Shown here in pieces: positions 22,377 to 63,730 of a stretch of 64,000 nucleotides of DNA. Both the position numbers and the translations under genes were made by a program. How positions within the stretch are numbered: position 1 is the stretch's first letter; every line of letters starts with the position of its first letter. A model generated the notes under the pieces. That model did no database searches. It saw only the letters and a program-made list of their open reading frames with translations, and was not told the DNA's origin. This DNA comes from an uncultured bacterium (GTDB lineage: Bacteria > Chloroflexota > UBA5177 > JANWHV01): positions 992,001-1,056,000 of the forward strand of contig CAWHAE010000009.1 of the NCBI GenBank assembly GCA_963827235.1, given 5' to 3'.

Positions 22377-22378
22377 CG

Positions 22379-42946: not shown

Positions 42947-43066
42947 GGCGACCATCTGCTCCGAAGGTGACCGCAGTCACCGGATAGAGTCGGCGGCAAG
43001 CATGGCCCGGCGGACCGTCCGCCGGGCCATGCTTGCTGGGTGAGATGGGGACGGGGCCTCCCCAGA

Positions 43067-43238: not shown

Positions 43239-43276
43239 TGGAGGGGGATACGGGTCAGGCGGGCCGGGGTGGGGCG

Positions 43277-43477: not shown

Positions 43478-43487
43478 GGGCAATCTC

Positions 43488-44234: not shown

Positions 44235-44334
44235 ACACGCAGCGCTCCATCGGCATCACGATAACAGACCGGGGCGCTACTCGCCGGCCGGCAAGACCGC
44301 GAGTGCCGCCTACCACCGTCAGCCATGATACGGT

Positions 44335-44346
44335 TAACAGCTGTTA
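44335..44346. promoter_or_regulatory. Palindromic operator in the COG4280 promoter
   Basis: TAACAGCTGTTA lies between minus-strand TTGCAC (44349-44354) and TATCAT (44325-44330). Confidence 0.45.
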
Positions 44347-44422
44347 CAGTGCAATGACTGCTACGCCGGCTATGCGTGGTATGCCGCGCGTGTGAAGCCG
44401 GTTTCCGGGCTGTGTGGTGCAT

Positions 44423-44451
44423 AACGGACCTGCAAACGGACCTGCAAACGG
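44423..44451. repeat. 12-bp tandem repeat
   Basis: AACGGACCTGCA twice plus AACGG. Confidence 0.8.
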
Positions 44452-44655
44452 CCCGGCTTGAGGGTGCACGGCGTACGCGGCCGGGCGTGCGATGGGAGGC
44501 ATCCCAGTCTGCCGCTTGCTCTTGCCGTGGCCATGGGCGTCAGGTGCGCGGCATACGGCCGGCTAGCGATTCCATTGTTCCATCCGCCAGGGCGGTAGCG
44601 GCAGATACTCCGGCAGCGGCTACAATTCCGCCATCCGCCGTCGGCAATGTTTTCC

Positions 44656-44710
44656 TTGACAAAGGCAATTCTCGTGCTATGCTGGGCATGATTCTAGAAC
44701 ATATGTACTA
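44656..44710 (+). promoter_or_regulatory. sigma70 promoter plus LexA (SOS) box for the phage-like operon
   Basis: TTGACA-16 bp-(TG.)TATGCT, then TAGAACATATGTACTA (GAAC-N4-GTAC, one mismatch to GAAC-N4-GTTC), then GGAGG RBS. Confidence 0.75.
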
Positions 44711-44725
44711 ATAACTGGAGGCAGG

Positions 44726-46423
44726 ATGGGGACTCGGTGGATGACCGAAGGTGCCAGAGCGCTAGCAGCGAACGGGGCGGACGGCACGGCAGTCTCCGAG
44801 CGGCTGGCGGAGGGGCAGTTCGACCCGACGGCGAATGCGACGTTCCCGATGCAGGAGGACTACTACTGGGGCCGGCTGGGCGCGGGCATGGAGGAGGACT
44901 ACTACTGGCGGCGCCTCTCCGACAACTGGTACCAGAAGGACGTCATCCCCAGCACGTACCTCGAGATCCACAACCAGTGCTACGAGCAGTTCAACGCGAA
45001 CCCGATTGCCGGCTACCTGGTGGAGATGATCACCAACTTCGTGCTGGGCACGGGGATCAGCGTGACGGCGGCGAACAAGAAGGTGCAGAAGCTGGTCGAC
45101 GCCTTCTGGGAGGACCCGGACAACCACATGGCGACGCGGGTGTACAGCCTGTGCACGGAGCTCTCGCTGTACGGGGAGCAGTTCGTGCGCTTCTTCGTGA
45201 ACCCGTTCAGCGGGCAGGTGAAGGTGGCGCAGATCGACCCCAGCCTGATCGACCAGATCGAGACGGACCCGGACAACATCGAGCGGACGATTCGGTTCCA
45301 CCAGCGGCCGGTGGGGCCGGGCGGGGCGATGTGGAGCGCCACGGCGCCGATCGGCGGGGTGCAGCCGCCGGCACCGACGTTGGAGCCGACGGGAGCGAGC
45401 TATCCGGGCGACGCGGTGATGGCGGGCAAGTGGTTCGCCGCGGGCACGGAGGTGGTGCAGTTCAAGATCAACTCGGTCAGCAACGCGAAGCGGGGCAAGA
45501 GCGACCTGGCGACGCTGCTGCCCTGGCTGCGGCGGTACCGGGATTGGCTGACCGACCGGGTGCGCATCAACAAGTACAAGGGCGCCTTCCTGTGGGACAT
45601 CAAGCTGGCGGGGGCGGACGCGAAGACGATCGACCGCAAGCGGATGCAGTACGCCTACGCGCCGGAGCCGGGGAGCATCGTGGTGCACAACGAGTCGGAG
45701 ACGTGGACGGCGGTGCAGCCGATGATCCATGCCGACGAGGTGGAGGCGGACGGGCGGGCGATCAAGATGATGATTGCCATGGGGGCTGGCGTGCCCGAGC
45801 ACTATCTCGGTGAAGGCGGGAACACGAACCGGGCGACGGCGAGCGAGATGGGGCTGCCGACCTTCCGCAAGTTCGAGCGGCGGCAGGACACGTTCGGGCT
45901 GCTGCTGCGGGCGATTCTGGACCGGGTGCTGGAGGAGGCGGTGAAGGCGGGGAAGCTGGGGGCGTCGGCGGACAAGAGCTACCAGATCATCTTCCCGGAG
46001 CTGGTGCCGAGCGACAACAAGGACCTGGCGACGGCGGGCAGCCAGATCATGTCCGCCCTGCTGGCGGCGAACCAGGCGGGGTGGATCAGCCGGGAGACGG
46101 GGATGCGGCTGTTCTTCGGCATGATCGGGCAGAACGTGGACGTGGCGGAGGAGATGGGGCGTGTGGCCTCGGAAGGAGTGAGCGCGGATGCTGGATGGAA
46201 CGACGGTGGTGCAGTCGGTGGCGGGGACGGTGGTTCCCGCGGAGAACCAGGGGACAAGCAAGTCCGTGGCAGGGGCGAGTACGGGCGGGGCGGGGTCGAC
46301 GAGCGAGCGCGAGGTAGCGGCGGCGGCGCGGTTCCTGGGGCGGGGGCTGGTGGACGTGCTGGTGCTGCTGCTGGCCGTGGTGCTGCTGGGACTCCTTCTG
46401 TACCTGGTGGTAGCGGCGATTAG
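44726..46423 (+). CDS. Phage portal protein; the Gly-rich tail after about 46180 is probably spurious read-through
   Basis: NPIA..LVE..TNFVLG.G, ELSLYGEQF, RGKSDL..LL.WL, GVPEHYL..G.TNRATA and FPEL motifs. Confidence 0.8.
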   Translation: MGTRWMTEGARALAANGADGTAVSERLAEGQFDPTANATFPMQEDYYWGRLGAGMEEDYYWRRLSDNWYQKDVIPSTYLEIHNQCYEQFNANPIAGYLVEMITNFVLGTGISVTAANKKVQKLVDAFWEDPDNHMATRVYSLCTELSLYGEQFVRFFVNPFSGQVKVAQIDPSLIDQIETDPDNIERTIRFHQRPVGPGGAMWSATAPIGGVQPPAPTLEPTGASYPGDAVMAGKWFAAGTEVVQFKINSVSNAKRGKSDLATLLPWLRRYRDWLTDRVRINKYKGAFLWDIKLAGADAKTIDRKRMQYAYAPEPGSIVVHNESETWTAVQPMIHADEVEADGRAIKMMIAMGAGVPEHYLGEGGNTNRATASEMGLPTFRKFERRQDTFGLLLRAILDRVLEEAVKAGKLGASADKSYQIIFPELVPSDNKDLATAGSQIMSALLAANQAGWISRETGMRLFFGMIGQNVDVAEEMGRVASEGVSADAGWNDGGAVGGGDGGSRGEPGDKQVRGRGEYGRGGVDERARGSGGGAVPGAGAGGRAGAAAGRGAAGTPSVPGGSGD

Positions 46424-46553
46424 CTTCGAGAGCGCGCTGGCCAAGGACTGGGTGGAGGCGATCAGCAAGCAGTTGGCGTTCCCGGTGGTGGGGCTGCTGG
46501 TGTACAGCGCGGGCCTGATCACGAAGCGGCCGGAGTGGGCCGGTGGTGAGTAG
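46188..46553 (+). CDS. Two-TM membrane protein, possible holin
   Basis: RBS AAGGAG; two hydrophobic helices; same operon as the lysin. Confidence 0.55.
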   Translation: MLDGTTVVQSVAGTVVPAENQGTSKSVAGASTGGAGSTSEREVAAAARFLGRGLVDVLVLLLAVVLLGLLLYLVVAAISFESALAKDWVEAISKQLAFPVVGLLVYSAGLITKRPEWAGGE

Positions 46554-46845
46554 CGTGGCGACGCCGGCAGGGGCCGGTTGTGAGGCGGGCACACCGGACT
46601 CCTATCAGCGTGAGCAGTCGGTGTTCACGGACCTGGTGAACGAGATGGACCGGGCGCGGAGATTGCACCGGGACATGACGTCGCCGCACGAGGCGATCGC
46701 GGTGATCCGGGAGGAGTACCTGGAGGCGGAGCGGGAGGTCTTCCAGAAGCACGTCGACCGGGCGAAGCTGCGCAAGGAGCTGATCCAGACGGCGAACGTG
46801 TGCCTGCGGGCGGTGATCGACCTGCGGCTCGAGCCGGGGTCATAG
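46543..46845 (+). CDS. MazG-like all-alpha NTP pyrophosphohydrolase-type phage protein
   Basis: HEAIAVIREEYLE...ELIQTANV matches the EExxE...E.xQ pattern. Confidence 0.6.
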   Translation: MVSSVATPAGAGCEAGTPDSYQREQSVFTDLVNEMDRARRLHRDMTSPHEAIAVIREEYLEAEREVFQKHVDRAKLRKELIQTANVCLRAVIDLRLEPGS

Positions 46846-46848
46846 CGC

Positions 46849-48561
46849 ATGCCACGAAAGAACTCGTATGTGACCGTGACGGATCTCTTCTGCGGCGCCG
46901 GCGGCAGCTCGATCGGCGTGCGGGCGGCCGGGGCGGAGCTGAAGCTGGGCCTGAACCACTGGCGCAAGGCGATCGAGACACACAGCACGAACTTCCCGGA
47001 GGCGATGCACGAGGTGTGCGACGTGCGTTCGACCGACCCGCGGCGGTACCCGTCGACGGACGTGCTGATCGCCTCGCCGGAGTGTACGGCGCACACCCTG
47101 GCGAAGGGCAGGCGCCGGAAGAACATCGCGCAGCAGGATCTGTTCGGCAAGGACGGCCTCGACCCGGCAGAGGAACGGTCGCGAGTGACCATGTGGGACG
47201 TGCCGCGGTTTGCGGAGTACCACCAATACAACCTGGTGATCGTCGAGAACGTGGTGGACGCGCGGCTCTACTGGCGGCCGTTCGACGCGTGGCTGCAGAG
47301 CATGGCCTGCCTGGGCTACAGCCATCAGCTCGTGTTCTTCAACAGCATGTTTGCCCATCCGACGCCGCAGAGTCGCGATCGGCTCTACGTGGTGTTCCAC
47401 CGGACGGGCAGCAAGGCGCCGGATCTGCGCATCACGCCGCGTGCCTGGTGCTTCCAGTGCGGTCGCGATGTGGCGAGCGTGCAGGCATGGAAGAACCCGC
47501 AGCGCCGCTGGGGCAAGTACGGCAAGCGGAACCAGTACCTCTACTGCTGCCCGGTGTGCGCCAGGGTGATGGAGCCGTACTACTTCGCCGCCGCGAACGC
47601 GATCGACTGGTCGTTGAAGGGCGAGCGCATCGGCGATCGCAGGGTGCCGCTCAAGGAGAAGACGCTGGAGCGCATCCGCTATGGCCTGGCCAAGTTCAGC
47701 CGGCCGTACATCGTGGGTCTTGACCATGGCGGTGAGTCAGGCAAGTGCTACGACCCGCTGGACCCCTTCCGCACCCAGACGGCTCGCGACAACACGGCAC
47801 TGGTCGAGCCGTTCATCGCGGAGCTGCGCGCGCACAAACACGCCAGCGGCATGGATGAGCCGCTCTCAACGCTCTGTGCCGGCGGCGGCCATCACGGTTT
47901 GGTGGTGCCGGCAGGGGGCACCTGGAACCTGGAGGCGCGGTCGACGGACGAGGCGATGCCGACCATGACCACGCGGGATGCCTACGGCGTGGCGTTCCTG
48001 GCATCGACGAACTACTTCAAGACGAGCCACGGCGTGGGGGAGCCGATGCCGACTCAGGTGACTGAGATCCAGCACGGCCTGGTCGAAGGTCCGCGGCCGT
48101 TCCTGATCTCGCACTACGGCGGCCGGCACGCCACGCACGACATCGGCGACGCGCTGCCCACGCAGCCAGGGTGGCCGATCCACGCGCTGATCATGGGTCA
48201 GCAGGGTGGCGCGGTAGCGCGGCCGGCGAGTCGCGAGCTGCCCACTGTTTCCACCGGAGGCGCCATCAGTCTGCTCGTGTCGTACACCCGGACAGGCAGC
48301 GCGCATCCGGTGGAGGAACCATTCCACACCGTGCATACGCACGACGGAGAGGCACTGCTTGAGGGGCGGGGCATTCCGGAGGTCGACGATTGCACGTTCC
48401 GCATGCTCAAGCCGCACGAGATCCAGCGGGCGATGGCGTTCCCGGAGGATTACCGGGTCTTGGGCACGGAGCGGGACAAGGTGAAGCAATTGGGGAATGC
48501 CGTCACGCCGCCGGTCATGTCGTTGCTGTTCGAGCGCGCCGTGGCGACGTTGGCAGGCTAG
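46849..48561 (+). CDS. Phage-type C5-cytosine DNA methyltransferase with a repetitive variable region
   Basis: DLFCGAGG (I), SPEC (IV), ENV (VI), QSRDR (VIII), R.MAFP (IX), GNAV (X). Confidence 0.93.
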   Translation: MPRKNSYVTVTDLFCGAGGSSIGVRAAGAELKLGLNHWRKAIETHSTNFPEAMHEVCDVRSTDPRRYPSTDVLIASPECTAHTLAKGRRRKNIAQQDLFGKDGLDPAEERSRVTMWDVPRFAEYHQYNLVIVENVVDARLYWRPFDAWLQSMACLGYSHQLVFFNSMFAHPTPQSRDRLYVVFHRTGSKAPDLRITPRAWCFQCGRDVASVQAWKNPQRRWGKYGKRNQYLYCCPVCARVMEPYYFAAANAIDWSLKGERIGDRRVPLKEKTLERIRYGLAKFSRPYIVGLDHGGESGKCYDPLDPFRTQTARDNTALVEPFIAELRAHKHASGMDEPLSTLCAGGGHHGLVVPAGGTWNLEARSTDEAMPTMTTRDAYGVAFLASTNYFKTSHGVGEPMPTQVTEIQHGLVEGPRPFLISHYGGRHATHDIGDALPTQPGWPIHALIMGQQGGAVARPASRELPTVSTGGAISLLVSYTRTGSAHPVEEPFHTVHTHDGEALLEGRGIPEVDDCTFRMLKPHEIQRAMAFPEDYRVLGTERDKVKQLGNAVTPPVMSLLFERAVATLAG

Positions 48562-48565
48562 AGCG

Positions 48566-49069
48566 GTGCTCGATGTTGTGCCGCTGACGCTGGCGCAGGC
48601 GAACGAGCTCGTGGTGCGGCTGAGCAGGCACCATGGGCCGGCGTGGGGACACCGCTGGAGCATCGGGGTGCAGGCGGATGGCCGGCTGGTGGGCGCCGCG
48701 GTTGCCGGCCGTCCGGTGTCGCGGATTCTGGACGATGGCCGCACGGTCGAGGTGACGCGGCTGGTCAGCGACGGCACGCCGAACGCCTGCAGTTGCCTGC
48801 TGGGGGCCATGGTGCGCATCGCGCGGGCCATGGGCTACGAGAAGGTGATTACCTACACGCTGCAGACGGAGGGCGGTGCCAGCCTGCGGGCGGCGGGCTG
48901 GACGGTGGCGGCGGTGGCCACGCGAGTGCGCACGTGGGACACGCCCTGCCGGCCGCGGCAGCATCACGAGCACGAGGACACGCCCAAGGTGCGATGGGAA
49001 TGCCAGCTCAAGCCGGCGGCGAAGCGGGCGCCGCGGCACAGGCCGGTGTTCGGTGAGAGTGAAGTCTGA
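48566..49069 (+). CDS. XF1762-family / Mom-like GNAT-fold protein
   Basis: AN..V...RHH, VG.A..GRPV.R.LDDG.T.EVTRL, NACS.L.G and ITYT..E.G.SLRAAGW. Confidence 0.8.
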   Translation: MLDVVPLTLAQANELVVRLSRHHGPAWGHRWSIGVQADGRLVGAAVAGRPVSRILDDGRTVEVTRLVSDGTPNACSCLLGAMVRIARAMGYEKVITYTLQTEGGASLRAAGWTVAAVATRVRTWDTPCRPRQHHEHEDTPKVRWECQLKPAAKRAPRHRPVFGESEV

Positions 49070-49092
49070 CCCGGAGGGGTCTGGAGGAGAGG

Positions 49093-49890
49093 ATGCCCGA
49101 ACTGAAGGGGATTGACGTCTCGCAGTGGCAGGGGGCTATCGACTGGGCGATGGTGCAGGCGGACGGGTATAGCTTCGCGGTGGTCAAGGCGACGGAGGGA
49201 CTGTCGCTGGTGGACCCGGAGTTCGCCGCCAACTGGGCGGGGGCGAAGGCGGCGGGGCTGGTGAGGGGGGCCTATCACTTCTGCCGGCCGGAGCTGGGGA
49301 ACGCGCGGCAGCAGGCACAGCACGTCGTGAACACGGTGGGGACGCTGGAGGCGGGGGACATCCTGGCGCTGGACCTGGAGACGCCGGCGGGGACGGTCGA
49401 CCAGTCGGCGTTCGCGCTGGACTGCGCGGGCATGGTGGCGAAGCTGGCGGGCTTCCCGCCGCTGCTCTACTGCAGCCAGGATTGGGCGAGGAACCGGCTG
49501 ACGGATGCGGCGCTGGCGGCCTATCCGCTGTGGCTGGCGTGTCCGGGCAGCAGTTGTCCGGCCTCGATCGGGGTGTGGCCGAGCGTGGCGCTGCAGCAGG
49601 AGTCGTGGACGCTCGCGGTGCCGGGGATTGAGGGGGAGGTGGACGGGGACGAGCTGGCGCGCACGCTGGACGGGCTGCGGGCGCTGGGCAAGCCGGCGGT
49701 GAGTCTGCGGACGGTGGTGTCGTGCGCGATGAAGCCGACGCCGGACCATACGAGCCCGGCGGTGGTGCTGCTGGCGGCGGGGGCTCTCGTGGCGCCGGAC
49801 GGGCCGCAGACGACGCACTGGCTGCACTGCCACACGAGCAGCTACAGCGGCTGGCTGCTGAAGGCGGAGCTGGCGGCGGTGGCATCGTGA
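49093..49890 (+). CDS. GH25 muramidase (endolysin) with a C-terminal SH3-like domain
   Basis: GIDVSQWQG.IDW, VKATEG, GAYHF, LDLE and VPGI.G.VD motifs. Confidence 0.92.
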   Translation: MPELKGIDVSQWQGAIDWAMVQADGYSFAVVKATEGLSLVDPEFAANWAGAKAAGLVRGAYHFCRPELGNARQQAQHVVNTVGTLEAGDILALDLETPAGTVDQSAFALDCAGMVAKLAGFPPLLYCSQDWARNRLTDAALAAYPLWLACPGSSCPASIGVWPSVALQQESWTLAVPGIEGEVDGDELARTLDGLRALGKPAVSLRTVVSCAMKPTPDHTSPAVVLLAAGALVAPDGPQTTHWLHCHTSSYSGWLLKAELAAVAS

Positions 49891-50396
49891 TCGTGCCGAG
49901 GCATCCCTGGCCCAAGCTGAGCGAGACGCTGCCGTACCCGCGCGACCCGCGGCGGTGCCAGGCGTGCGGGGCGGTGGGGGACGGCAACCGGGTGCCCAGA
50001 GACGGCGCAGCGTGTCTGCCGGCGCTGCACCGCTGGCGGGAGCATGACGAGGCGGACCGGCCCACGGCGGTGGTGGTCGTGCTGTGCGCGGGGTGCAGCG
50101 ACAGGATGATCGGGCCACATCCGCGGCTGTACAGCCGGCTGCACGACTTCGAGCCGGTGCCGGGCAGCATGGCGCTGTGCGAGGAGTGCGCGTGCCGGGA
50201 TGGCCTGCGCTGCACGCACGGCGACCTGAAGGCCAACGGCGGCGGTGGGTTGGCGGTCAGCGTGGCGAAGCCGCACGTGGCCATCCTCTGCTCGAGGGGC
50301 GGCACGCAGCACGGCTGCCGGCAGATGGTGATCTGGCCGTCGGCGCCGACCGGTTGCAGGGGCCGCAGCGTGGCGGTGCGCGAGGCCGCGGGCTAG
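49887..50396 (+). CDS. Cys-rich hypothetical phage protein
   Basis: GTGA coupling; CQAC, W.EHD, LCAGC and CEEC motifs (Zn-binding/HNH-like). Confidence 0.65.
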   Translation: MIVPRHPWPKLSETLPYPRDPRRCQACGAVGDGNRVPRDGAACLPALHRWREHDEADRPTAVVVVLCAGCSDRMIGPHPRLYSRLHDFEPVPGSMALCEECACRDGLRCTHGDLKANGGGGLAVSVAKPHVAILCSRGGTQHGCRQMVIWPSAPTGCRGRSVAVREAAG

Positions 50397-50476
50397 CAGC
50401 CAGCGTGCTTCGAGTCCAATACTGATAGAGTGGCTAAGGGATTGACTCTGGATGTATCATGCGGACGGAGGGTGCG

Positions 50477-50857
50477 ATGAGCGTGCGGGCGGTGGTCTCG
50501 GACCGGAGCCGGCATGAGGGCAGCGGGCACAGTGCTCGCCATGCCGGCGTCTCGCACGTGGTGGCGACGGCGGTCGCGGTGCAGGACGTGACGGCGGGGG
50601 AGTCGTCGAGCGGCTCGCGGGCGGTCTCCGGCGCCCGGGCGAGCGATGAGTTCTCGGAGTTGGGGGTGCTGCAGTCCTACGACTCGGGCAGCAACACGGC
50701 GATGGTGCAGCTGCTGGGCGCGCAGTCGAACGTGGTGGGGCCGCTCTCGGTGAACAAGGCGATCGGCTCCAGTCTGCTGGTGGCGGGTGCGCAGTGCTTG
50801 GTGGTGCTGATGGACGCCGCGAACCCGGCCGACGGGTCGCTGGTGAGCGTGTGGTGA
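50477..50857 (+). CDS. Hypothetical protein, possible OB-fold spike/baseplate-like
   Basis: RBS GGAGGG; GVLQSYD....TA.VQL...G.QCLVV pattern. Confidence 0.55.
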   Translation: MSVRAVVSDRSRHEGSGHSARHAGVSHVVATAVAVQDVTAGESSSGSRAVSGARASDEFSELGVLQSYDSGSNTAMVQLLGAQSNVVGPLSVNKAIGSSLLVAGAQCLVVLMDAANPADGSLVSVW

Positions 50858-50864
50858 GGCCGCT

Positions 50865-50926
50865 GGCTGCGGTCCCAAGCCTCCGACTGCGGTCGGATGG
50901 CAGCAGAGGGGGGACTGCGGTCCGGG
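50865..50926. repeat. REP-like hairpin, copy 3
   Basis: Hairpin TCCGAC-TGCG-GTCGGA; 50878-50904 is identical to 52212-52238. Confidence 0.75.
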
Positions 50927-50962
50927 TGAAGCGGGGTTGGTGTGAGCGGTGAGGGAGGAGTG

Positions 50963-51370
50963 ATGCCGAGACAGGTGGGTTCCCCGGTGGTGGTGGAAGG
51001 ATCGATAGTCCCGAGGGGCGATGGAGCGGCCCTGCCCGAGCCGTGGACCCGAAGCTGCCGCAAGGGGCCGCGGGGTGGGCTGAAGCGGGAGCCGCGGGTG
51101 GACGAGAGCGACCTGTACGTGCTGTTCCGGGAGCGCGGCGCCGGGCGGTATCCGTTCCTGCTGGCATGGCTGAACCGGCACGGGCTGACCTCCGGGTACG
51201 AGGTGCAGCACGCGGCACGCTTCGGGCGGGTGCTGGTGGTGGGGCAGCCGGACGGGCTCTCGCTGCCGGAGACGTGCGACACGTCGTACGTCAACGCGGA
51301 GACGGCGGACGTGCTGTTCCGCGGCCTGCCGAGCGTGCGGAGCTTCTTTGGGAGGGGGCATGGAGAGTAG
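50963..51370 (+). CDS. Hypothetical phage protein
   Basis: RBS GGAGG; overlaps the start of the protease ORF. Confidence 0.6.
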   Translation: MPRQVGSPVVVEGSIVPRGDGAALPEPWTRSCRKGPRGGLKREPRVDESDLYVLFRERGAGRYPFLLAWLNRHGLTSGYEVQHAARFGRVLVVGQPDGLSLPETCDTSYVNAETADVLFRGLPSVRSFFGRGHGE

Positions 51371-53460
51371 GGAGAGCCGGATACGGTTCGGCATCAGCCT
51401 GCGGGAGGGGCTGGTGGGGCCGGCGGACAAGCGGGAAGTGGAGGTGGTGTGCATCCGGCCGGGTCTCTCGCGGAACGGCAACTACTACGGGCCGGAGTGC
51501 CTGGCGGAGGCGGTGCCGCTGTTCGAGGGGGCGCGGGCCTACGTGGACCATTCGGACGCCACGCTGCGCAGCGTGCGGGACCTGGCGGGGTCATACAAGA
51601 AGGTGCGGCTGGGCGGTGAGGGCGAGGTCCGGGCGACGCTGCGCATCTCGAAGAGCCAGGAGTGGCTGTGGGCGCTGATCCAGGAGTCGGTGGAGGAGGG
51701 GACGGACCTGGTGGGGCTGTCCATCGACGTGCAGGCGAAGGTGGTGGAGGGGCAGGTAGGCGGCCGGCGGGCGCGCATCGTGGAGCACATCCACACGCTC
51801 TCCAGCGTGGACGTGATCACGAAGGCATCGGCGGGTGGCACGTGGAGATCGTCGAGGAAGCGGGAACGAGGGCGCGTTCCAAGAAGCGGACAAGCAGAGT
51901 TGGTGGGACCAGTGCGAGCCGCTGAACGAGCAGGGGGCGGTGCTGGCGGAGCGGGCGGTGCGCGGCGGGACGTCGGTCGTGGGGCAGCAGCAGCCGGTGC
52001 CGGCGGGGCAGGTGAATCCGGTGCAGCTGGGACCGAGCGTTGGGCAGGCGATTCCTGGGGGTGAAGTGCAGTTGGGAGGGACGTACGTGGTGCAGACCGG
52101 CAGCAATCAGGTGGCGGGCGGCGGTGAGGGTCCGGCTACGGTGGCTCCGGTGGCGCCGCCTGCGCAGATGGTCTCGGCGAGCCAGGCGATCCGGGAGGGG
52201 AACGCGGCTGGAGCCTCCGACTGCGGTCGGATGGCAGCGAACGGGGGCACTGCGGTGCCCGGCGGCGGGATGGCGGTGCGCGAGGGCGAGAGCGCGGCGG
52301 GGGACGTGGCGCGGCTGCCGGAGGAAGTGCGGCAGGAGCGGGCGGTCTTCGCCGGCGAACGGTTGGTGGAGAGCACGCTGGGCAAGACAGAGCTGCCGGC
52401 GGCGATCCGGGCGCGGGTGGCACGGCGGTTTGCCGGTCAGGTGGTCCAGGAGGCGGACCTGCAGGCGGCAATCGACGAGGAGCGGGCCGTGCTGGCGGAG
52501 CTGACGGCGGGCGGGCTGATCCGGGGCATGGGCTACGAGAAGCGGGTCAGCATCGGCATGACGGAGGCGGAGCGGCTGCAGAAGGCGTTCGACCAGCTCT
52601 TCGACATCCAGGAGGGCGACAAGGTACCGGCGCTCTCGGGCATTCGGGAAGCCTACGCGGTGGCCACGCACGACTACGCGGTGACGGGCATCACGCCGTT
52701 GGAGCGGTTGCAGGAAGCGGACACCACGACCTCGACCTTCAGCTACCTGCTGGGCACGAGCATGAACAAGCGGCTGCTCAAGGACTACCAGGCATGGCCC
52801 AGCGAATGGCAGAAGTGGTGCACGATCACGCCGATCAAGGACTTCAAGCTGCAGAACCGGGTGCGGCTGGGTGCCTTCGGCTCGCTGACCACGGTGAGTG
52901 AAGACACGGCGTACACCACGATCACGCTCTCGGACGTGCAGGCGACCTACTCGCCGGCCAAGCGGGGCAACCTGGTGGCGGTGACGCGGGAGACGATCGT
53001 GAACGACGACCTGTACGCGATCAAGCAGATCCCGGGGAAGCTGGCGGTGGCGGCGGCGTTCACGCTGGCGGAGTTCGTATACGGGCTGGTGGCGGCGAAC
53101 GGGGGCAACATCTACGACGGCAACAAGCTGTTCGACTCGATCAACCACCTGAACACGGGCATCATTACCGCCAACCTGGGCACGGCGAACTCGGGGGCGG
53201 CGCTGGCGTCCGCGGCGCTGCAGACGGCGGTGACGAAGATGCGGCGGCAGGCGAACCTGGCGAGCAAGCCGATCGGGCTCAAGCCGCGCTTCATCGTGGT
53301 GCCGCCGGAGCTGGAGTGGACGGCGATGGTGATCACCAAGAGTGCCGGTGCGCCGGGTGGGAACAATAACGACATCAACCCGATGCTGGGCTACTGCGAG
53401 GTGATGGTGGCGCCGCAGATCTGTCAGTTTAAGCATAGGTTTGCGTATCGCGCAACCTGA
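51360..53460 (+). pseudogene. Prohead protease-scaffold-Mu gpT-like major capsid polyprotein; frameshifted near 51845-51865 and truncated at 53421
   Basis: Protease motifs G.SRNG.YY, YVDH, GLSI, SVDVI...SAGG; capsid motifs NKRLL..Y, DFK, K.G....TRETIVNDDL, IP.KLA.AA, YDG.KLF..H.N, P.FIVVPPELE; expected C-terminus replaced by transposon-end sequence. Confidence 0.85.
52212..52256. repeat. REP-like hairpin, copy 4, in frame inside the capsid linker
   Basis: AGCCTCCGACTGCGGTCGGATGGCAGC encodes ASDCGRMAA. Confidence 0.75.
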
Positions 53461-53495
53461 TCGTTAAAATCGGCGCACGCAAATATATGCTTAAA
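53422..53495. repeat. Transposon end with three putative TnsB binding sites
   Basis: TGTCAG then TTTAAGCATAGGTTTGCG (53428-53445); inverted copies at 53451-53468 (TTTAACGATCAGGTTGCG) and 53478-53495 (TTTAAGCATATATTTGCG). Confidence 0.85.
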
Positions 53496-54063
53496 GAACC
53501 GTCCGACGTGCTTGTCTTGTGACACTGATACTTCGGTGCGGAGCCTTCACTGAACCTCATCGCAAGACCAAGAATGGCCAACGCTTAAGTCGCTGCTCAC
53601 ACTTCGCTTACCCTGCAACTGCCTATGCCCGCTTCGGCAGCAACCACCACGCCGAACAGCACACCGCAGTGCATCCAGCAAGCAACTGCGGCGATCATTG
53701 CCACATTTGCATTACGCTGCGGCAGACCTCTCGAGCACCCAAAGTGAAGGGGCAGATACGCATGTCAACGCACGCACGCCGCGAGAATCGGTTATCGCGT
53801 GCGCCTAGAAGCACGCCGCGGCATGCCGACGCGCGGCAGCGTTTAGGCGACGGGAGCCTGCACCGACGTGACCGCACGATGGCCTCCGATGCCTTCAGCA
53901 CGAAGAACACGCCGGGCAAGGCGTGCACCAACCAAACGGTGATCAACATCTACGCGCGTGCCGATCTCGCCTGACGTCCGGCGTCTGCATACTCTACCCC
54001 GTGGAATAGCAGTGTCCACTTCCACGCCGGCGGCCACGTGTCGACCAGATTCATCGAGATCGC

Positions 54064-55551
54064 TCAGAGACTTGGCAGGTCGCGTTCACCACCCGGAGTC
54101 CATCCAGACTTCTCAAGCGCAGACTCCCAGACAGCGTAAAAGATCGGATCCGCGTGATGCGCAGGTGTAGCAAGTCGCTCAATCACTTTCGCCTGGCTGG
54201 GATACTCATCGGCAGCTGTAAGCTCACGTACAATCACATCTACCTCGCGAGCAAGTCCGGCCATTCGGTTGAGACTCCGGTTGCGCTCGTAGCGCCCGTG
54301 AAACTGCGCGATGCGCGCGCACTGCTTTGGATACATGTTCGTGAGCAAAGCAGCATCACACTCAAGACGGCGCGCCAATTGATGTACCGAGGGTGGAGGC
54401 ACGATGTGCCCCGCCAACGCAGCCTCCAGCACCTGGTTGATATCGTCAGACCAGCGGCTTCGATGTGGGCGGGTTGGCGCGCGCATAGGCACGTATTCGT
54501 TCACGAGCGGAGTCAGCGTATCGTGAGGATCAGGCAACTCACCAGTCAGGAAAGTCACCACTCCCACACCCAACCCGGCGCATAACCGCAGGAGTTCGGG
54601 AAATGAAGGCACGCTCACTCCTGTAAGCCATCTTCGTACGGTGTCTTGATGCTGCCCAGTCTTCTGCGCCAGCGCGCGCACCCCAGTGCCATTGACTCTC
54701 CGGGTGGCGGCAGGAGACGCAGTCTCATGCAGTCGCGAAGCAACCCTCTCCTTACCCGGCGGTGAGACGCGGGGAGCTACGGCCACTAGATCTCCTGCCT
54801 GCCGGGCGACCCACATTTCCCAGCGCCCCTCATGGGTTTCGGTTGCTACAGGGTGCTGGGCCGCACGTATCCCATGAACCTTGCTACCCAACGAATCCCC
54901 ACAATGGGGACAAAAGCCAGGACGCGTTATCGGACCCAGCACCGGCATTTCTCGCCAGCACCTTGGATTTGCGCATCGGTCCAGGAGATAGACGTGATGC
55001 CGTAGGCAGACTTGAACAGCGCCGATGGCCCACACCAATCGGTCAGACACAATACCGCCATCTTGCTGCATCTCTTGATAGCAGTATGGACAGTACGCAC
55101 GCATGGATCGTAGCAAGCCTCTAGACGCGATCACGCTACGCCACGTCAGCAGAGTCAGAGATCCGAGCAGTGCTGGCTGGCAAGTCAGCACTTCGACCGC
55201 GTTGACGATCGCCTCAGCCTGACCATCCAACCCATTAATGGCCACAGCGTCCCGCAGCAGCATCCTGCCGAGGGTACGGTCCGACAAGTTGGGCCGCTGC
55301 GCCATCGGGAAGATCTCCTCACCCATCAGCGTGCGAAGGTGTACACAGTGCGCAAACGCCAGGCGTGCCAAATAACCGCTCATACCTTCCACGTCCGGCG
55401 TACCAACCCACTGCGGTGCCAGACGATATAAACGGCTTCGAGCTGAGATCTGGGGAAGTGTGAGGTCAAACACGGCATTGCCGCCGACAGTGGAATTCCA
55501 GGCGGCTTCGTCATCACTCAGATTGTCGATGACAATCACGCTTCTTTCCAC
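54064..55551 (-). CDS. tniQ: TniQ/TnsD-family target selector with zinc fingers and C-terminal HTH domains
   Basis: SRLY.L.P..VGTP.VE..SGYL.RLA.AH, YCPYC, C..H...L.D.C and FCPHCG; XRE-like VRALAQKTG..TVRRW. Confidence 0.9.
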   Translation of the reverse strand: MERSVIVIDNLSDDEAAWNSTVGGNAVFDLTLPQISARSRLYRLAPQWVGTPDVEGMSGYLARLAFAHCVHLRTLMGEEIFPMAQRPNLSDRTLGRMLLRDAVAINGLDGQAEAIVNAVEVLTCQPALLGSLTLLTWRSVIASRGLLRSMRAYCPYCYQEMQQDGGIVSDRLVWAIGAVQVCLRHHVYLLDRCANPRCWREMPVLGPITRPGFCPHCGDSLGSKVHGIRAAQHPVATETHEGRWEMWVARQAGDLVAVAPRVSPPGKERVASRLHETASPAATRRVNGTGVRALAQKTGQHQDTVRRWLTGVSVPSFPELLRLCAGLGVGVVTFLTGELPDPHDTLTPLVNEYVPMRAPTRPHRSRWSDDINQVLEAALAGHIVPPPSVHQLARRLECDAALLTNMYPKQCARIAQFHGRYERNRSLNRMAGLAREVDVIVRELTAADEYPSQAKVIERLATPAHHADPIFYAVWESALEKSGWTPGGERDLPSL

Positions 55552-56819
55552 GCTTGACCCCCTTCGCCACCAACTGGGTCTCGTGTCGGACGGCGTTCAC
55601 CGACCCCGCGCTTGGAATCACGCCGACCAGTCGTTTTTCCGCTGGTCCTGCCATCGCCGTCAGAAACACCGGCGTACTCAGCACCGGGTAGCGTCATGCG
55701 ACCGGCGCCATGACAAAGAGCGTCAAACTGCCGGGTCCTCCACGCGCGCTCCACCGCAGGACTCACCAGAACGGATCTTTCCCCCGTCTGCGCAGCGTCG
55801 ATGAGCCTATCAATATCTTCTGGCGATTGCATGTACTGCTCCACCTGCTTCATGGTAACCTTCGGCGGATCCTTGCTGAGCCCATCAGCCAACACGTGGG
55901 TGAGCAGGTCCTTGAGCGTACCGATACAGCCAATGCATGCCAGGTAGCACTGTCTCCATCGAGTCATCAACTCTATGGGAGTCTCGGGAACTGGCATCTG
56001 AAGCAGCAACGTCTTAAGCGCTGACTGAAAACTGGCGACGTGTTCCTTTTGCGCAATATCGTAACGCGGGATATAGATCTGGTGTCCACCGGAAAGCATG
56101 TCAGTATTGACCTCCCGCAGTGCGTGAAGGTCATCCGTGCCCACCAATACATGCACTACCTTGCAGCGCTTTGCCATCCCTCGGATGACTTCTGCGCGGA
56201 CCTCCAGCGAGTCCGATGAGCACGACAACAACAGGCGCTGCGCTTCGAAGATGAAGAACGCAAGCGGCCTACGTTTATTCAGCGCAGACTCAACAGCATC
56301 CTGCAAGCCCGCAGTTGAATGGTTATAGTGCTTCGATGGCACTGGAGCCAGCGCAGGCCACAATGGGAGCTGGCCAGGTTGGTGCTCAAACGCACGGATC
56401 CGAGCAATCATCGGGACTTGCAGCGCACGCAGGGCATCGCTGTAATGTCGAGCCCAGCCATACCCCCCATTTTCCGGTGCTTTCGCCTCTATTTGTGGAA
56501 GCAGCACACGACCCCTATCTGACTCAAGCTCCTCACGATATTCATCCGCAAGAAGCTTAATGACCTCAGCGCAAGCCGTACGCTTACCTACGCCTTGGGG
56601 GCCACACACCAAGATATGCGACCAACTACCCGGCGTTCGAATCGCATTCAACAGGTCATCACGCGCAGTAGTAAGCGCTGGATGTTCAATCACCGTTTGC
56701 TGAAAGTACGCAAGCCGCTCAGCCGCTGGCTGTCGGAGCAAATCACGCGGAAAGAGACCAGGGCCTAGGGGATTCGCTGTAGATCCTTCGCTCTCGCCTG
56801 CGTCGAACGTTTGATCCAT
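55536..56819 (-). CDS. tnsC: TnsC/TniB AAA+ ATPase with atypical Walker motifs
   Basis: ERL.YF....I.HP; Walker A GPQGVGKR, Walker B FFIFEAQ, HVLVGT and GCIG.LKD; lies between tnsAB and tniQ. Confidence 0.88.
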   Translation of the reverse strand: MDQTFDAGESEGSTANPLGPGLFPRDLLRQPAAERLAYFQQTVIEHPALTTARDDLLNAIRTPGSWSHILVCGPQGVGKRTACAEVIKLLADEYREELESDRGRVLLPQIEAKAPENGGYGWARHYSDALRALQVPMIARIRAFEHQPGQLPLWPALAPVPSKHYNHSTAGLQDAVESALNKRRPLAFFIFEAQRLLLSCSSDSLEVRAEVIRGMAKRCKVVHVLVGTDDLHALREVNTDMLSGGHQIYIPRYDIAQKEHVASFQSALKTLLLQMPVPETPIELMTRWRQCYLACIGCIGTLKDLLTHVLADGLSKDPPKVTMKQVEQYMQSPEDIDRLIDAAQTGERSVLVSPAVERAWRTRQFDALCHGAGRMTLPGAEYAGVSDGDGRTSGKTTGRRDSKRGVGERRPTRDPVGGEGGQAWKEA

Positions 56820-56820
56820 C

Positions 56821-59800
56821 TCACGTCAACCGTTCGGTCGTGGGTATCGCGTCAAAATCGAGCGCGAGATCGTCAGCATCGTAAGCACCACGAACACCGT
56901 GCTCAGTCGGGACCGTGCTCCTATTCCGCAGAACCTGCTGGCTCGAGGAGGGAAGCAACACCAGCGGTGGGCGGTCAGATTCGGGGGACTGCTGCGATAC
57001 GGTCGGACTTCCCTCAGCACGATCACTTGGTGCCGGAGAGACTTGCAGTGCAGAGTCCTGCACCTTATCCTCCGGATTACCGGGAAGCACGGCGTCATCG
57101 ATTCTAACAGTGAGTAGGGTCAAAACCGGTTCATGATTCACGTCTTCAGGAGCGACAGGTCGCACCACCAGCGCAGACTGTGCTGGAGCAACCCCGCCAG
57201 CTGGAACCGGCCCACCGGCAATCCGTTGGTTAACAGCAATGTGTAGTGCATCGCGTTTACGTTGCATCAACACTGCCTGGGTCACATCGACGCTGTGCAG
57301 ATAAGCCGCCAGATCCCCAACGTTCAACGTCTTTGAAGCTCGATACGATGCGCGGTTCTTCGCCCGCAACTCCGCAGACGCCAGGCGAAGCAAGCGCTCA
57401 GACATGCCTTTGAACAGGTGGGAGTGGTAGTACGAGAAGCACTTCACCCAACGTCCCACCCGCACCAAGATATACCCCGCATCAAAGGGATCGTACTTCA
57501 CCTCAACACGCGTCCCATTGAACCTGCCCGGAATTGGCGAGGGCACCTTGTAGATCACGTGGTGGAGTTGCACCTGCCCTTTCTTATTAAGCTTCGCAAC
57601 CCCGGTCCGCGTCGTCGGGAGAGTCTCACGCAGAAAGTCATCATCATAGGCGATACGCTTGAAGTCCCGCTCACCAGAGAGGCGCACGCTCTGCTCAAAG
57701 GCATTCCGCGGCGAATCCAAGACGCCCCGGTGTACCGCGGTGTCGTATGTCCCGTAGGCCCAAGCGCAGATCTCCAAGTACAACGTCTCCAGGGACCAGA
57801 TTGCGTGCCGCGCAGGATCCACGGACACAGTCACCTGTCGCACATTGCGCATCACCGTGGTATTTCCCTCGAGGTTATGGATCAACTGTGTATTCAGCGT
57901 GCCGAAGAGTCGCTCGCCTATCGCACCGTGACGCGGCTCAGCGCTGGGACGCTGTCGCTTGATACAACCGTTCTGGGTCAACAACGATTCAAAGTACACC
58001 GAATCGAACTCAGATCCCCCATCAACCACGAGTGCACTAGGAAGGCGATTCCATCGCCGAACACAGTCGCGAATCACCATCATACACGACCGATAACTCG
58101 GCTCGTCAAACGTCAGATAGAGCGCCAGGATACGTCGCGAGAACGCATCCACCATCAGCGTCAGCCACGGTCGACCCAGCACCCTGTTGCTGTACATATC
58201 CATAAGTTGCACGTCAAGCTGCGTGTGATCGAGATGGGCCATCTCCCACGCTCGCACCCCGTGGCGCTCAGGGCCCTCGATTTCCAGGGGAACGTCTTCC
58301 TTGATCCCATAGGCCGCACGCCTCCCCTCACGACGTACTTTTTGCTCGTAGAGCGAAGTGTTGTTAACAGCCCTATAGAACGTCACGTGGCTGGGAGGCG
58401 GCAACCCTTTCTCCTGTGCCAAACGACACACCTCCACGTATGATGACCACGCCCTCCCACGCTTGAGGCCGAGAGCATTCTGTCCCAGATGCTTGTCCCT
58501 GATAACATCGCGCATGATCGCGTAGAGGCGGACATCCAATCGTTGCGAGGAATTCCCGGACCGCGGTTTCGGCAGCAAGCCAACATGACCGTTACCGTAG
58601 CAAACTTCAGCATCGCGGTAGTCCTTGCACCATTGCTGGCACGTACGCAGCGGCGGTGCCTTTGCCGGCAGATGTTCTCCACGCAGAAGCAGTTGCACGA
58701 AAGGATGCCGCCGCGTCGCTTCTGCGTGATCCTGCCGGGACGCGTGAAGCATTCTTTCCCGGCCGGCGGGGGTCATACTTCCTGTATGCGCGGGCAACTC
58801 TGGTAGGTTTGCTATTTCCCCACGGCCGACGAGGTCATCGAAGTCTCGATGCGAAACAGCAAGGACATCCCCGCTTGGACCGACGAGCCTGACGTTGTCA
58901 GCGTCGCCCCCTATCCACGAGAATCGTCCACCGCGCCACGTGACCGTCGCGCCCGGCGTCAAAGCCCGTATGCGAGCGATGCGCGAAACAGCCTCTGTCT
59001 TTGCTTGCTCTGCCAGCGCCCAAGACTGCGCGCTTTCGGCGTCCGCGTAGATCCGCATGCCTGGCCGACGCGCCAGTTGCTCGCTATGGAGGTCAACGCA
59101 GACCTCGCCACGTGCAATGAGCAGATACAGACTATCAGCAACGTTCGGAAAGCGCTGGAGGGATTCAGCGTCAATGATGTCGTGAGTCCGCACACCCGGC
59201 TGCGAACAAACAATGTCGATAAGAGCTTGGCGCAGTTCGGCCCGTACCTCTACGGGGCTTTCACACTGTAGATACTCAGCCAGGAATGAGATGTTCTCCT
59301 GGAACTTCCAGTTGATAGCCTTGGACGAGAAGACCCGATACTCAAGGCCGAACTGCGCCGCGTATGCTTGCCCAGGGGGACAGATCCAATCGGTATCGCC
59401 CACTCTCTGATAGCGATTCGGCTGCTCTACAGAAAGTTCCTGAAGCTTCTCTTCCTGCTTGCATTCCACCCACCAAGCCCCGCGCGCGGCCAGGACGAAG
59501 AAGTCAGGAGTATGCATTCCGCGCCATCGCCGCCCAGCCTTGGCCTGGTAGTCAAGGGGAATCTGCGGCGGTTGATCCCAGATCTCCAGGATGTCATCGT
59601 CGAACTCAGACAGCATGATAAACGGCAACTCGACGGTATGACTCTCGAACTGGACCGAATGACCCATCTTGCGACTCGGATACCGTCCGTGCACGTTTCC
59701 TGCGCGACCACTAACCAAGCGACTGGGAGGGGAACCACGGATGCCCGCGACTTCCGCACGCGCGGCATCAGATAGCCCCACCTCGCCGCACCACGCAGCA

Positions 59801-59823
59801 AACCCCGACTCCGAGAGTTTCAT
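56821..59823 (-). CDS. tnsAB: Fused TnsA endonuclease-TnsB DDE transposase
   Basis: TnsA motifs YPSRKMG..VQFES..E, TPDF and VECK; TnsB motifs HLDHT.LD, GRPWLT..VD, VVDGGSEF and ERLFGT; RBS GGAGAG before MKLS. Confidence 0.93.
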   Translation of the reverse strand: MKLSESGFAAWCGEVGLSDAARAEVAGIRGSPPSRLVSGRAGNVHGRYPSRKMGHSVQFESHTVELPFIMLSEFDDDILEIWDQPPQIPLDYQAKAGRRWRGMHTPDFFVLAARGAWWVECKQEEKLQELSVEQPNRYQRVGDTDWICPPGQAYAAQFGLEYRVFSSKAINWKFQENISFLAEYLQCESPVEVRAELRQALIDIVCSQPGVRTHDIIDAESLQRFPNVADSLYLLIARGEVCVDLHSEQLARRPGMRIYADAESAQSWALAEQAKTEAVSRIARIRALTPGATVTWRGGRFSWIGGDADNVRLVGPSGDVLAVSHRDFDDLVGRGEIANLPELPAHTGSMTPAGRERMLHASRQDHAEATRRHPFVQLLLRGEHLPAKAPPLRTCQQWCKDYRDAEVCYGNGHVGLLPKPRSGNSSQRLDVRLYAIMRDVIRDKHLGQNALGLKRGRAWSSYVEVCRLAQEKGLPPPSHVTFYRAVNNTSLYEQKVRREGRRAAYGIKEDVPLEIEGPERHGVRAWEMAHLDHTQLDVQLMDMYSNRVLGRPWLTLMVDAFSRRILALYLTFDEPSYRSCMMVIRDCVRRWNRLPSALVVDGGSEFDSVYFESLLTQNGCIKRQRPSAEPRHGAIGERLFGTLNTQLIHNLEGNTTVMRNVRQVTVSVDPARHAIWSLETLYLEICAWAYGTYDTAVHRGVLDSPRNAFEQSVRLSGERDFKRIAYDDDFLRETLPTTRTGVAKLNKKGQVQLHHVIYKVPSPIPGRFNGTRVEVKYDPFDAGYILVRVGRWVKCFSYYHSHLFKGMSERLLRLASAELRAKNRASYRASKTLNVGDLAAYLHSVDVTQAVLMQRKRDALHIAVNQRIAGGPVPAGGVAPAQSALVVRPVAPEDVNHEPVLTLLTVRIDDAVLPGNPEDKVQDSALQVSPAPSDRAEGSPTVSQQSPESDRPPLVLLPSSSQQVLRNRSTVPTEHGVRGAYDADDLALDFDAIPTTERLT

Positions 59824-60234
59824 GATACTCTCCAGCGAGCCGTTGACCGCGGCAACCAGCTTGAAATCCGCCTGGTGCTTGTAGCCACCATCATCGCGCA
59901 TGCTTGCCCGGCACCCAGACGCACCCTGCGCCGAGAAGCCGCAGAATTCGGGCCTAGTGTACACCGCACTCTACCCATTGAATACTCCCAATTCAGTTCG
60001 CCAGACCTCACGGATGGTGCGCGGGCAATCGGCAAGCCTCTGCAGTTTCGCGTCACCCAGTCGCTACTAAGCTCGAGCGGCTAACACCGACGTCAGAGGA
60101 ACGGCCCGGAACACCGTCCGTAGCTCCGCCGCCAAACCCGATACAACACCTGCGACGGCTCTAGTTGCCGACAACAGCAGTTCCCGCATCATCGTGCGCC
60201 CACCTGCTCCACCTGCGTGTCAACATGTAACTTC

Positions 60235-62707: not shown

Positions 62708-63251
62708 ATGAGCGACCAAGAAGGACCGGCGCGATCGCCAAAACGCGGGGAGGGTCGCCGGCAGCGCACGCCCATCACGGAGGTCGATCAACGAGTGCAG
62801 GATCGCCTGGTACGGTTCCGCAAGTACCTCACCGACGTGCTGAAGGAACGCGGCATCTCGATGCGCAAGCTGTCGCTGCAGACCGGCAAGTACGAGGGCT
62901 ACTACCTGAACCTGCTCACAGCGCCGGAACTCGGAGCGCAGGCGCTGCCCACGCCCGAAGACCTGCGCCTGCTGGCGCCGATCATCGGCGCCCCGGTCGG
63001 CCAACTGTTCGAACTGGTCTGGGGCATCACGCGCTCAGAGATCGAGAGCGATCTCAGAAGCGGTAGCCGCGCACTCCGGCGTCTGCGCCGAGAACCGCAC
63101 CGGGTTTTCCAGGGCAGAGTTCGCCGACTTTACGCCCCAAGAGCAAGAGGAGATCCGCAACTTCCTGGGCTACGTGCGCGCCAAGCAGGAGAAGCGCAGG
63201 CTCGAGCAGGCCGAGGCACGAGCGAACAAAGGCGGCAAGGAGCGAAAGTAA
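62708..63251 (+). CDS. XRE/ImmR-like HTH repressor (apparent 1-bp frameshift near 63057)
   Basis: KERGISMRKLS..TG HTH; the alternative frame gives FTPQEQEEIRNFLGYVRAK..* ending in TAATG coupled to the next gene. Confidence 0.75.
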
Positions 63252-63730
63252 TGAATGCCTGGCCACCCCTTTGCCTGCCGCCTGTGGACCCGGATCAGGT
63301 GGCGCAGGACCTCGGCATCGCCGTGAGCTACTGGGACCGCTTGCCGTGCCTGGGCATCTTCGCACGCACTCGCGACGGCTGCGCCGAAATCGCGCTGCGC
63401 GGAGATTTGCAACAACCGCGGAACGAGCGATTGCGCCGGGTCACGCTGGCGCACGAGCTGGGGCACGCGGCGCTGCACGCTGGCACGTACACCTCGCCGC
63501 TACACTGCCACCGGCCCGACTTCACGGCGTCGCGCATCGAGTTCCAGGCCGAGCGCTTTGCCGGCGAGATGCTCTGCCCGGAGAGCCTGGTACAAGCGCT
63601 CTGCCGCGATCGCGGCGAGATCGGACCCGAAGAGATCGAAGAACTAGCAGACGCGGTGCAGGCTCCGAACGAGTTCGTCGGCTGGTGGGTAGCGTTCTTG
63701 GCCCGAAGCGGTCGAATAGTGTTGCCTTGA
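63251..63730 (+). CDS. ImmA/IrrE family Zn metallopeptidase
   Basis: PVDP..VA..LGI.V, RRVTLAHELGH (HExxH) and E.QA.RFAGEML.P; RBS AAGGAG. Confidence 0.9.
   Translation: MNAWPPLCLPPVDPDQVAQDLGIAVSYWDRLPCLGIFARTRDGCAEIALRGDLQQPRNERLRRVTLAHELGHAALHAGTYTSPLHCHRPDFTASRIEFQAERFAGEMLCPESLVQALCRDRGEIGPEEIEELADAVQAPNEFVGWWVAFLARSGRIVLP

Follow-up and report, generated by a model that had tools for sequence, protein, structure and literature searches.

Transposons of the Tn7 family have attachment sites in housekeeping genes, tRNA genes, competence genes and CRISPR repeats, and their target choice is studied for its precision and re-programmability. One branch of the family, the fused-TnsAB clade of Hsieh and Peters, holds the type I-B2 and I-D CRISPR-associated transposons (CASTs) and is described as mostly targeting tRNA genes (PMC9881144). 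The tRNA-homing members, represented by the TnsABCD core of the I-B2 and I-D CASTs (solved structures 9bw1 and 8v32), consist of a fused TnsA-TnsB, TnsC and a full-length TnsD. According to PMC9881144 and PMC10293859, their operon is directed toward the end proximal to the attachment site, transposase-binding sites are present in both orientations at that end, and a 5-bp target-site duplication is formed. The target gene reads toward the same end, and the part recognised by the transposon lies ~30 nt away. Here we describe an element with the same protein set, polarity and duplication, which begins in a 64,000-nt stretch of the genome of an uncultured Chloroflexota bacterium (contig C9, positions 992001-1056000; hereafter the window). 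It differs from the tRNA-homing elements in sequence (~40% identity for TnsAB and ~30% for TniQ), in the absence of Cascade and of a second TniQ, in a 640-bp gap between tniQ and the transposon end, and in its target. Unlike in most members of the clade, the flanking gene is not a tRNA gene; it is the coding sequence of a phage capsid protein, which is cut 71 codons before its stop. We consider it somewhat more probable than the contrary that a conserved block of this capsid gene is the site recognised by TnsD and that the insertion was TnsD-directed homing.

The element comprises C9:1045422-1092996 (47,575 bp), has inverted ends that match imperfectly, is flanked by an exact 5-bp duplication, and runs ~37 kb past the end of the window; the coordinates of its parts are collected in the table below. 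A previous sequence-only reading of the window had proposed a TnsAB-fusion Tn7-like transposon inside a major capsid gene, and this is borne out by the protein domains, the structure matches and the junctions. The extent given there, 53417-59823, covers the transposition genes but falls short of the element. At the left junction the capsid frame ends with ...VMVAPQI, homology to capsid genes stops at 53421 and TGTCAG begins at 53422, and the GC content falls from 0.69-0.72 to 0.57-0.62, in line with the switch and the lower GC noted in that reading. The GC content is 0.610 for the element, 0.690 for the phage-derived gene cluster around the capsid gene and 0.652 for the genome. The left terminal site TTTAAGCATAGGTTTGCG is located at 53428-53445 and its inverted copy, with 2 mismatches, at 53478-53495; two matches of the 18-nt repeat at ≤3 mismatches compare with 0.01 expected by chance. 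Three 18-bp repeats had been proposed, of which these two are strong; the third, an inverted site at about 53451-53468, is weak (13/18) and is supported by its position, where relatives also carry a site. The left-end layout of a site, 8 bp, a site, 3 bp, the inverted terminal site and GTCACA recurs almost base for base in 14 relatives, and ends with sites in both orientations were also seen at further relative loci not associated with tRNA genes.

When the genome was searched with the 18-nt repeat, one further copy was detected, 47.6 kb downstream on the same contig. The junction there reads ...CGCAGAATTATGCCTAAACTGACA-AGATC-GCGAGCGCGACC..., with the terminus at C9:1092996 (window-equivalent 100996) and GCGAGC after the right AGATC, and the capsid frame resumes for 71 codons to its stop. 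A far end followed by AGATC and by the capsid C-terminus had been set beforehand as the observation on which the sequence-only reading would stand or fall. The TGT...ACA termini, the several transposase-binding repeats and the 5-bp duplication are those by which the Tn7 family is recognised. BLASTN comparison with 11 relatives showed that the left and right capsid flanks overlap by exactly 5 bp in the intact homologues, which identifies AGATC as the target-site duplication. With one intact homologue (L008:1501-3261) as the query against 21 genomes of the class, a split match was obtained in this genome only, its parts (residues 3-518 and 512-587) lying 47.6 kb apart. In the sister species G001, where the whole phage-derived cluster is collinear with this one and the host genes on either side are the same, one capsid part directly follows the other (284248/284247). 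The element, its ends, its target-site duplication and the empty site in relatives are thereby established.

The interrupted gene encodes a major head protein. Its open reading frame (ORF), starting at 51835, matched Phage_capsid_4 (Pfam; 3.4e-27, profile positions 7-175 of 262), Mu-like gpT, and PHROG 4523, annotated as 'major head and protease protein'. The 5' part shares 75-81% identity with uninterrupted copies from other members of the genus, and the 3' part is 92% identical to residues 512-587 of an intact homologue and covers Phage_capsid_4 positions 198-260 of 262. Both halves are still open and are 76-92% identical to the genes of the sister species. Since the halves are open and the transposition genes intact, the insertion probably happened recently, and transposition of the element may still be possible. 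Capsid homologues were found in 22 of 61 related genomes (this one counted; G018 and G055 among the 61 are unpublished), including all four other genomes of the genus.

Each of the three transposition genes encodes a protein that is homologous, over its full length, to a component of a solved TnsABCD transpososome. TniQ contains the Pfam TniQ domain (3.8e-18) together with HTH_31/HTH_3, and its residues 28-464 align to the solved TnsD 8v32_J (E 2.8e-55). TnsC aligns to the solved TnsC 8fcu_Q (E 1.1e-46), and residues 54-919 of TnsAB align to 9bw1_M (E 4.6e-199). The TnsA-like N-terminal domain (PF08722), rve and Mu-transpos_C are all found in one TnsAB polypeptide. The D, D and E columns of TnsB do not vary among 21 sequences (this one counted), in agreement with the alignment to 9bw1_M, and the TPD...ECK motif of TnsA is conserved; both sets of residues are probably catalytic. 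Genome-wide there is one TniQ and one TnsAB. As judged from these proteins, the element is a Tn7-family transposon of the fused-TnsAB clade with TnsC and one full-length TnsD-type TniQ, which agrees with the family assignment of the sequence-only reading. The C-terminus of TnsAB, encoded at 56821-57200 of the window, is ~130 residues longer than those of the ~900-aa relatives and of the solved homologue, with which it can be aligned up to residue 919 of 1047.

Relatives of these proteins are numerous and distant. Among 8000 candidates scored, 557 proteins matched TnsAB at E≤0.001, and the closest of them were at most 45% identical; the genome collection contains at least 516 TnsAB relatives among at least 599 pattern-matched stretches. 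A TniQ match was found in 10 of 401 genomes of the phylum, this one counted, with that at locus L109 the nearest (36%); a 211-aa fragment with 61% identity over 125 residues was the exception to the limit of 36% identity among TniQ matches. When TniQ was used as a single query against metagenome contigs, none of 128 pattern matches was a relative. Likewise, none of 49 pattern matches of the TnsAB alignment among viral contigs (IMG/VR) was a relative, and the search of GenBank phages with TnsAB gave just distant TniA-like matches (23-27% identical).

To place the capsid insertion among its relatives, 80 loci gathered with the TnsAB alignment were compared; the TniQ alignment (29 sequences) was too divergent for a locus search. 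The genes are arranged as tnsAB-tnsC-tniQ on one strand in 64 loci, 12 have no TniQ match and 4 show another layout. In 16 of the 64 ordered loci a tRNA gene on the opposite strand starts 164-226 bp past the TniQ match, which indicates that in these relatives tniQ is separated from the end by a much shorter gap. The terminus lies 30-32 nt from the 3' end of the tRNA gene in all 14 junctions examined, and this agrees with the 30-33 nt given for homing insertion of an I-D CAST in PMC10293859. Seven loci without a flanking tRNA gene had an identifiable terminus, and five of these have, next to the terminus, the 3' end of a protein gene whose reading direction is toward the transposon. At L044 and L109 the dnaN frame runs into the terminus and the transposon end supplies a stop at the last codon; at L059 and L063 the dcd stop is ~10 nt from the terminus; at L067 the 3' end of a DUF5685 gene is at the terminus. 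Neither of the other two shows a target-gene arrangement, the next gene (rpoN) reading away from the end at L083 and the flank being too short at L069. The conserved codons for DLWV[IV]MPLYD in dnaN are located 30-60 nt away from the terminus, and the 30 nt closest to it are variable. The available parts of the cited literature contain no mention that we found of dnaN as a Tn7-like attachment site. L044 (Chloroflexota) and L109 (a genome from the phylum of the window) are distant fused-TnsAB elements. Another locus of this phylum, L111, was considered as tRNA-targeting and left unclassified, its tRNA-Arg gene being ~0.3 kb and not 30 nt past the end.

The capsid insertion has the geometry of these relatives. 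The reading direction of the capsid gene is toward the tniQ-proximal end, a polarity found in every resolved target. When ~1.4 kb of the gene was aligned from 11 relatives and ranked by sliding window, the 28-nt block at positions -55 to -28 relative to the terminus ranked 3 of 1531. Intact sites of the sister species differ from it at 0-4 positions. The ranking was repeated at widths of 20-36 nt with the unpublished genome G055 left out (10 relatives); the block then ranked 5/1535 at 24 nt, 2/1531 at 28 nt and 24/1527 at 32 nt, and at widths of 24, 28 and 32 nt the peak of conservation over the entire gene is a window with its start at -53 or -54, within one base of the block. At the insertion point begins a stretch that carries insertions and deletions and belongs to the lowest 7% of windows. 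Polarity, distance and the conserved block together favour TnsD-directed homing to the capsid sequence, which the sequence-only reading had suggested; its proposal of a TnsD that recognises a conserved capsid sequence has gained this circumstantial evidence and still concerns a single insertion. On this view TnsD would bind the block, and the site would have been chosen and not hit by accident. We give about even odds to a TnsD specificity that evolved toward a conserved major-capsid block common to phages of this bacterial class. A resemblance of the block to a tRNA T-arm, judged by eye, was too weak and was discarded. No Rfam family scored at the gathering threshold inside the element; no tRNA scan was made of the window flanks.

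Under this reading, TnsD would bind the conserved NDINPMLGY-coding block in the target gene and recruit TnsC, and TnsAB would then insert the element by cut-and-paste ~28 nt downstream, oriented so that its tniQ-proximal end faces the site to which TnsD is bound. The capsid sequence would accordingly be the attachment site of the element or a very close mimic. The insertion has left the 5-bp duplication and has cut off the last 71 codons of the gene; it would have disarmed the phage cluster and has installed a defence island of 41 kb.

Several results weigh against homing to the capsid gene. One insertion underlies the whole case: the capsid site is occupied in none of 11 other capsid-bearing genomes of the class (one of them, G018, unpublished), and no capsid homologue was found in the flanks of the 80 relative loci or of 9 loci from the same phylum. 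A pattern made from the end motifs gave 0 matches in metagenome contigs and 0 in viral contigs, and among 2862 TniQ matches at E≤0.001 the full-length relatives are at most 36% identical. The conservation offset was picked after the alignment had been seen, the relatives are not independent, and the block ranks lower at 20 nt (33/1539) and 36 nt (53/1523). The spacing is 27 nt here compared with 30-32 nt at tRNA genes. Finally, every resolved relative leaves its target gene intact, and the capsid insertion destroys its target.

The last of these points and the lack of a second occupied capsid site also speak for the main competing explanation, which we regard as possible and clearly less probable than homing, namely that the element landed once at a non-cognate site, through a TnsD pseudo-attachment event or in an untargeted manner, while its true attachment site lies elsewhere and the phage gene was dispensable. 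The resolved relatives use and spare the 3' ends of tRNA, dnaN, dcd and DUF5685 genes, and sites of the first three kinds are also those of the nearest TniQ relatives. Phage-derived DNA is a tolerant sink for insertions. Moreover, Tn5469, which likewise has a fused TnsAB and one TniQ, was found as a spontaneous insertion mutagen (PMC9881144). Against a one-off event stand a polarity that fits the family and a conservation peak at the family-typical distance and on the correct side; TniQ is a full-length TnsD homologue with its DNA-binding region, and no alternative attachment site could be named for it. The sequence-only reading had offered as its other possibility a pathway with mobile elements as its targets. 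Such a second pathway, acting on mobile elements or on phage DNA during replication, would be similar in function to TnsE. Tn7 TnsE favours conjugating plasmids and filamentous phage, and the three unassigned cargo ORFs near tnsAB could hide a selector. This pathway has nevertheless become improbable: there is a single TniQ, no TnsE-like or Cas selector was found, relatives are absent from IMG/VR and GenBank phages as searched above, the phage cluster is chromosomal and syntenic with that of the sister species, and the insertion geometry is that of the TnsD pathway.

Still less probable, to the point of being very unlikely, is an RNA-guided, CAST-like insertion in which the CRISPR array of the element would cooperate with a Cascade encoded elsewhere. 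The element carries an I-E-like array near its right end with a degenerate repeat after the last spacer, and the clade includes the I-B2 and I-D CASTs (PMC9881144). Against this, Cas1, Cas3-HD, Cse1, Cas7e and Cas6e (five Pfam families) gave no match in the whole genome, which is 95.9% complete, in a search whose Cse1, Cas7e and Cas6e controls were weak (positive in 1 of 14 genomes). None of the 22 scanned cargo ORFs matched a cas gene (Pfam; partly PADLOC and NCBIfam), no spacer matched the capsid gene or its neighbourhood over ≥19 nt, and there is no small TniQ. An identity as a CAST was therefore rejected, as no cas genes were found to accompany the array. The assembly (7.98 Mb, 21 contigs) is metagenome-derived with an estimated contamination of 9%, which could raise the suspicion of a chimera or rearrangement. 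Both junctions are, however, on one 1.3-Mb contig and have an exact duplication and matched inverted ends. An artefact is excluded for practical purposes, because the capsid flanks abut perfectly in relatives and the cluster is collinear in G001.

The relatives next to dnaN and dcd likewise have a protein-coding target with the same polarity and a conserved block 30-60 nt away; unlike here, they insert at or just past the stop, the gene survives, and the targets are housekeeping genes. Attachment sites within a gene that is thereby inactivated, comM or comEC, have been published for Tn6022/AbaR-type elements and I-B1 CASTs, which differ in belonging to another Tn7 branch with a separate TnsA, in using a host competence gene and in recurrent occupancy, the CASTs being directed by guide RNA (PMC9881144). 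A published Tn7-like family that targets CRISPR repeats also has a fused TnsAB, TnsC and a TnsD with an evolved non-tRNA specificity; it resides inside arrays, mostly without cargo, whereas here the array is cargo inside the element (PMC11837452). Tn5469, compared by its description in PMC9881144, shares the fused TnsAB, the single TniQ and a gene-disrupting insertion, but has no cargo and is thought to use no attachment site. No description of a phage structural gene serving as a Tn7-like attachment site was found in literature searched by title and abstract; the supplementary attachment-site tables of PMC9881144, PMC10293859 and PMC8649781 may bear on this point.

If the capsid block is indeed the attachment site, it would be the first in the Tn7 family inside a phage structural gene and would enlarge the range of targets by a new class, namely sequences that belong to another mobile element, are conserved over a host clade and can be lost at no great cost, or even to the advantage, of the host. 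Homing of the transposon would be tied to conflict between mobile elements, with a prophage-like cluster killed and defence systems imported. A dispensable, clade-wide landing pad would allow the resident capsid gene to be knocked out and a multi-system defence island to be delivered in one step, and the same recognition might permit insertion into incoming phage genomes. The TnsD-DNA pair would be distant from the solved one and useful for studying how specificity evolves. If the insertion was a one-off event, the locus is still a clean, fully bounded large transposon with a defence island and an orphan CRISPR array, found outside cyanobacteria.

Features of the element and its target gene (strand and basis where given; C9 coordinates for features outside the window)
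Feature	Window position	C9 position	Strand	Basis or remark
Major head/protease gene, 5' part, 529 codons	51835..53421		+	Pfam, PHROG 4523
Candidate TnsD recognition block TAACGACATCAACCCGATGCTGGGCTAC, NDINPMLGY-coding	53367..53394		+	conservation, distance; 28-55 nt from terminus
Target-site duplication AGATC, left copy	53417..53421			capsid flank comparison
tniQ-proximal (left) end, TGTCAG and three sites	53422..53495		+	
Stretch between end repeats and tniQ stop, ~570 bp	53496..54063			no function assigned
TniQ/TnsD-type target selector, 495-aa ORF (database copy 413 aa)	54064..55551		-	Pfam, TnsD structure match
TnsC AAA+ regulator, 427 aa	55536..56819		-	AAA_22, AAA_16, TniB; solved TnsC match
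Fused TnsA-TnsB transposase, 1047-aa ORF	56821..59964		-	Pfam, 9bw1_M match
Start of cargo, ORFs of 246, 158 and 410 aa	60235..64000			no function assigned
IrrE/ImmA-like M78 peptidase	62708-63730			cargo, in window
Cargo beyond window	window-equivalent 64001-100892	to 1092892		
Orphan CRISPR array	window-equivalent 99198-100090	1091198-1092090 (L006:15198-16090)		~0.9 kb from right end
Far (right) end, three same-orientation sites, ending ...GCCTAAACTGACA	window-equivalent 100893-100996	1092893-1092996		
Target-site duplication AGATC, right copy		1092997-1093001		outside window, before capsid 3' part
Major head/protease gene, 3' part, last 71 codons and stop	window-equivalent 101002-101217	1093002-1093217		outside window

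Upstream of tnsAB the element carries ~41 kb of cargo rich in defence genes, as is typical of Tn7-like elements (PMC8649781). The cargo was scanned as 22 ORFs of 92-1885 aa against Pfam, 10 of them also with PADLOC and 10 with NCBIfam. Within the window, the 410-aa ORF gave a weak PD-(D/E)XK match. Beyond it are encoded a GNAT protein with an FtsK/SpoIIIE ATPase; an SMC/LmuB-like ATPase with a metallophosphatase and two unknown proteins; an AAA_15 ATPase similar to OLD/AriA/GajA; a C5 DNA methylase with an HhH-GPD glycosylase; and an SspF/DndF-like protein, a MAD7-like protein and an 1885-aa RuvB-like AAA protein. The group at C9:1078785-1090135 (window-equivalent 86785-98135), made up of the methylase, glycosylase, SspF/DndF-like and MAD7-like genes and the gene of the 1885-aa protein, has the flavour of methylation-associated defence; a C-terminal RuvB-like AAA module is the sole recognisable part of the 1885-aa protein. 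About 2.3 kb of the cargo at C9:1057750-1060000 (window-equivalent 65750-68000) shows no codon-position GC bias and no Rfam match; the bias is also flat in a 537-aa minus-strand ORF (1057935-1059548) there. In the stretch between the left end repeats and tniQ, a 151-aa ORF (53519-53974) had no Pfam match.

In the CRISPR array, 14 repeats of 29 nt recur every 61 nt, and the last spacer is followed by a 15th, degenerate one. Its repeat, which we take to be I-E-like, contains a run of 12 G in one copy in the assembly. Comparison of the array with phages gave matches of 26-29 nt that were not significant (E 0.08-0.3). The last spacer matches 25 of 27 nt at C18:22317-22343 (L099:7317-7343; E 4.7e-4), within an 1881-aa ORF that has no Pfam match and is next to an equally unannotated gene (1472 aa). 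This spacer was considered as a homing spacer and rejected, because the match is on a different contig.

The phage-derived cluster occupies window 41399-53421 and C9:1093002-1104000, ~23 kb without the transposon, and encodes portal, endolysin, protease, capsid and tail proteins. Its counterpart in the sister species (G001:C8:271949-295208) has the same chromosomal context and 53-92% protein identity; two genomes of other families have just the protease-capsid module in common. The scanned ORFs of the cluster included no recognisable terminase, integrase or repressor; the cluster may be an old domesticated one or one resembling a gene transfer agent and not a recent prophage. Between its portal and endolysin genes (window 46849-49069) are a DNA methyltransferase gene and a Mom-like DNA-modification gene, a pair without counterpart in the syntenic cluster of G001. 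Farther upstream, at window 19000-22400, the GC content drops to 0.53-0.59 over two ORFs (636 and 383 aa) with low third-position GC, and this region may be another acquired island.

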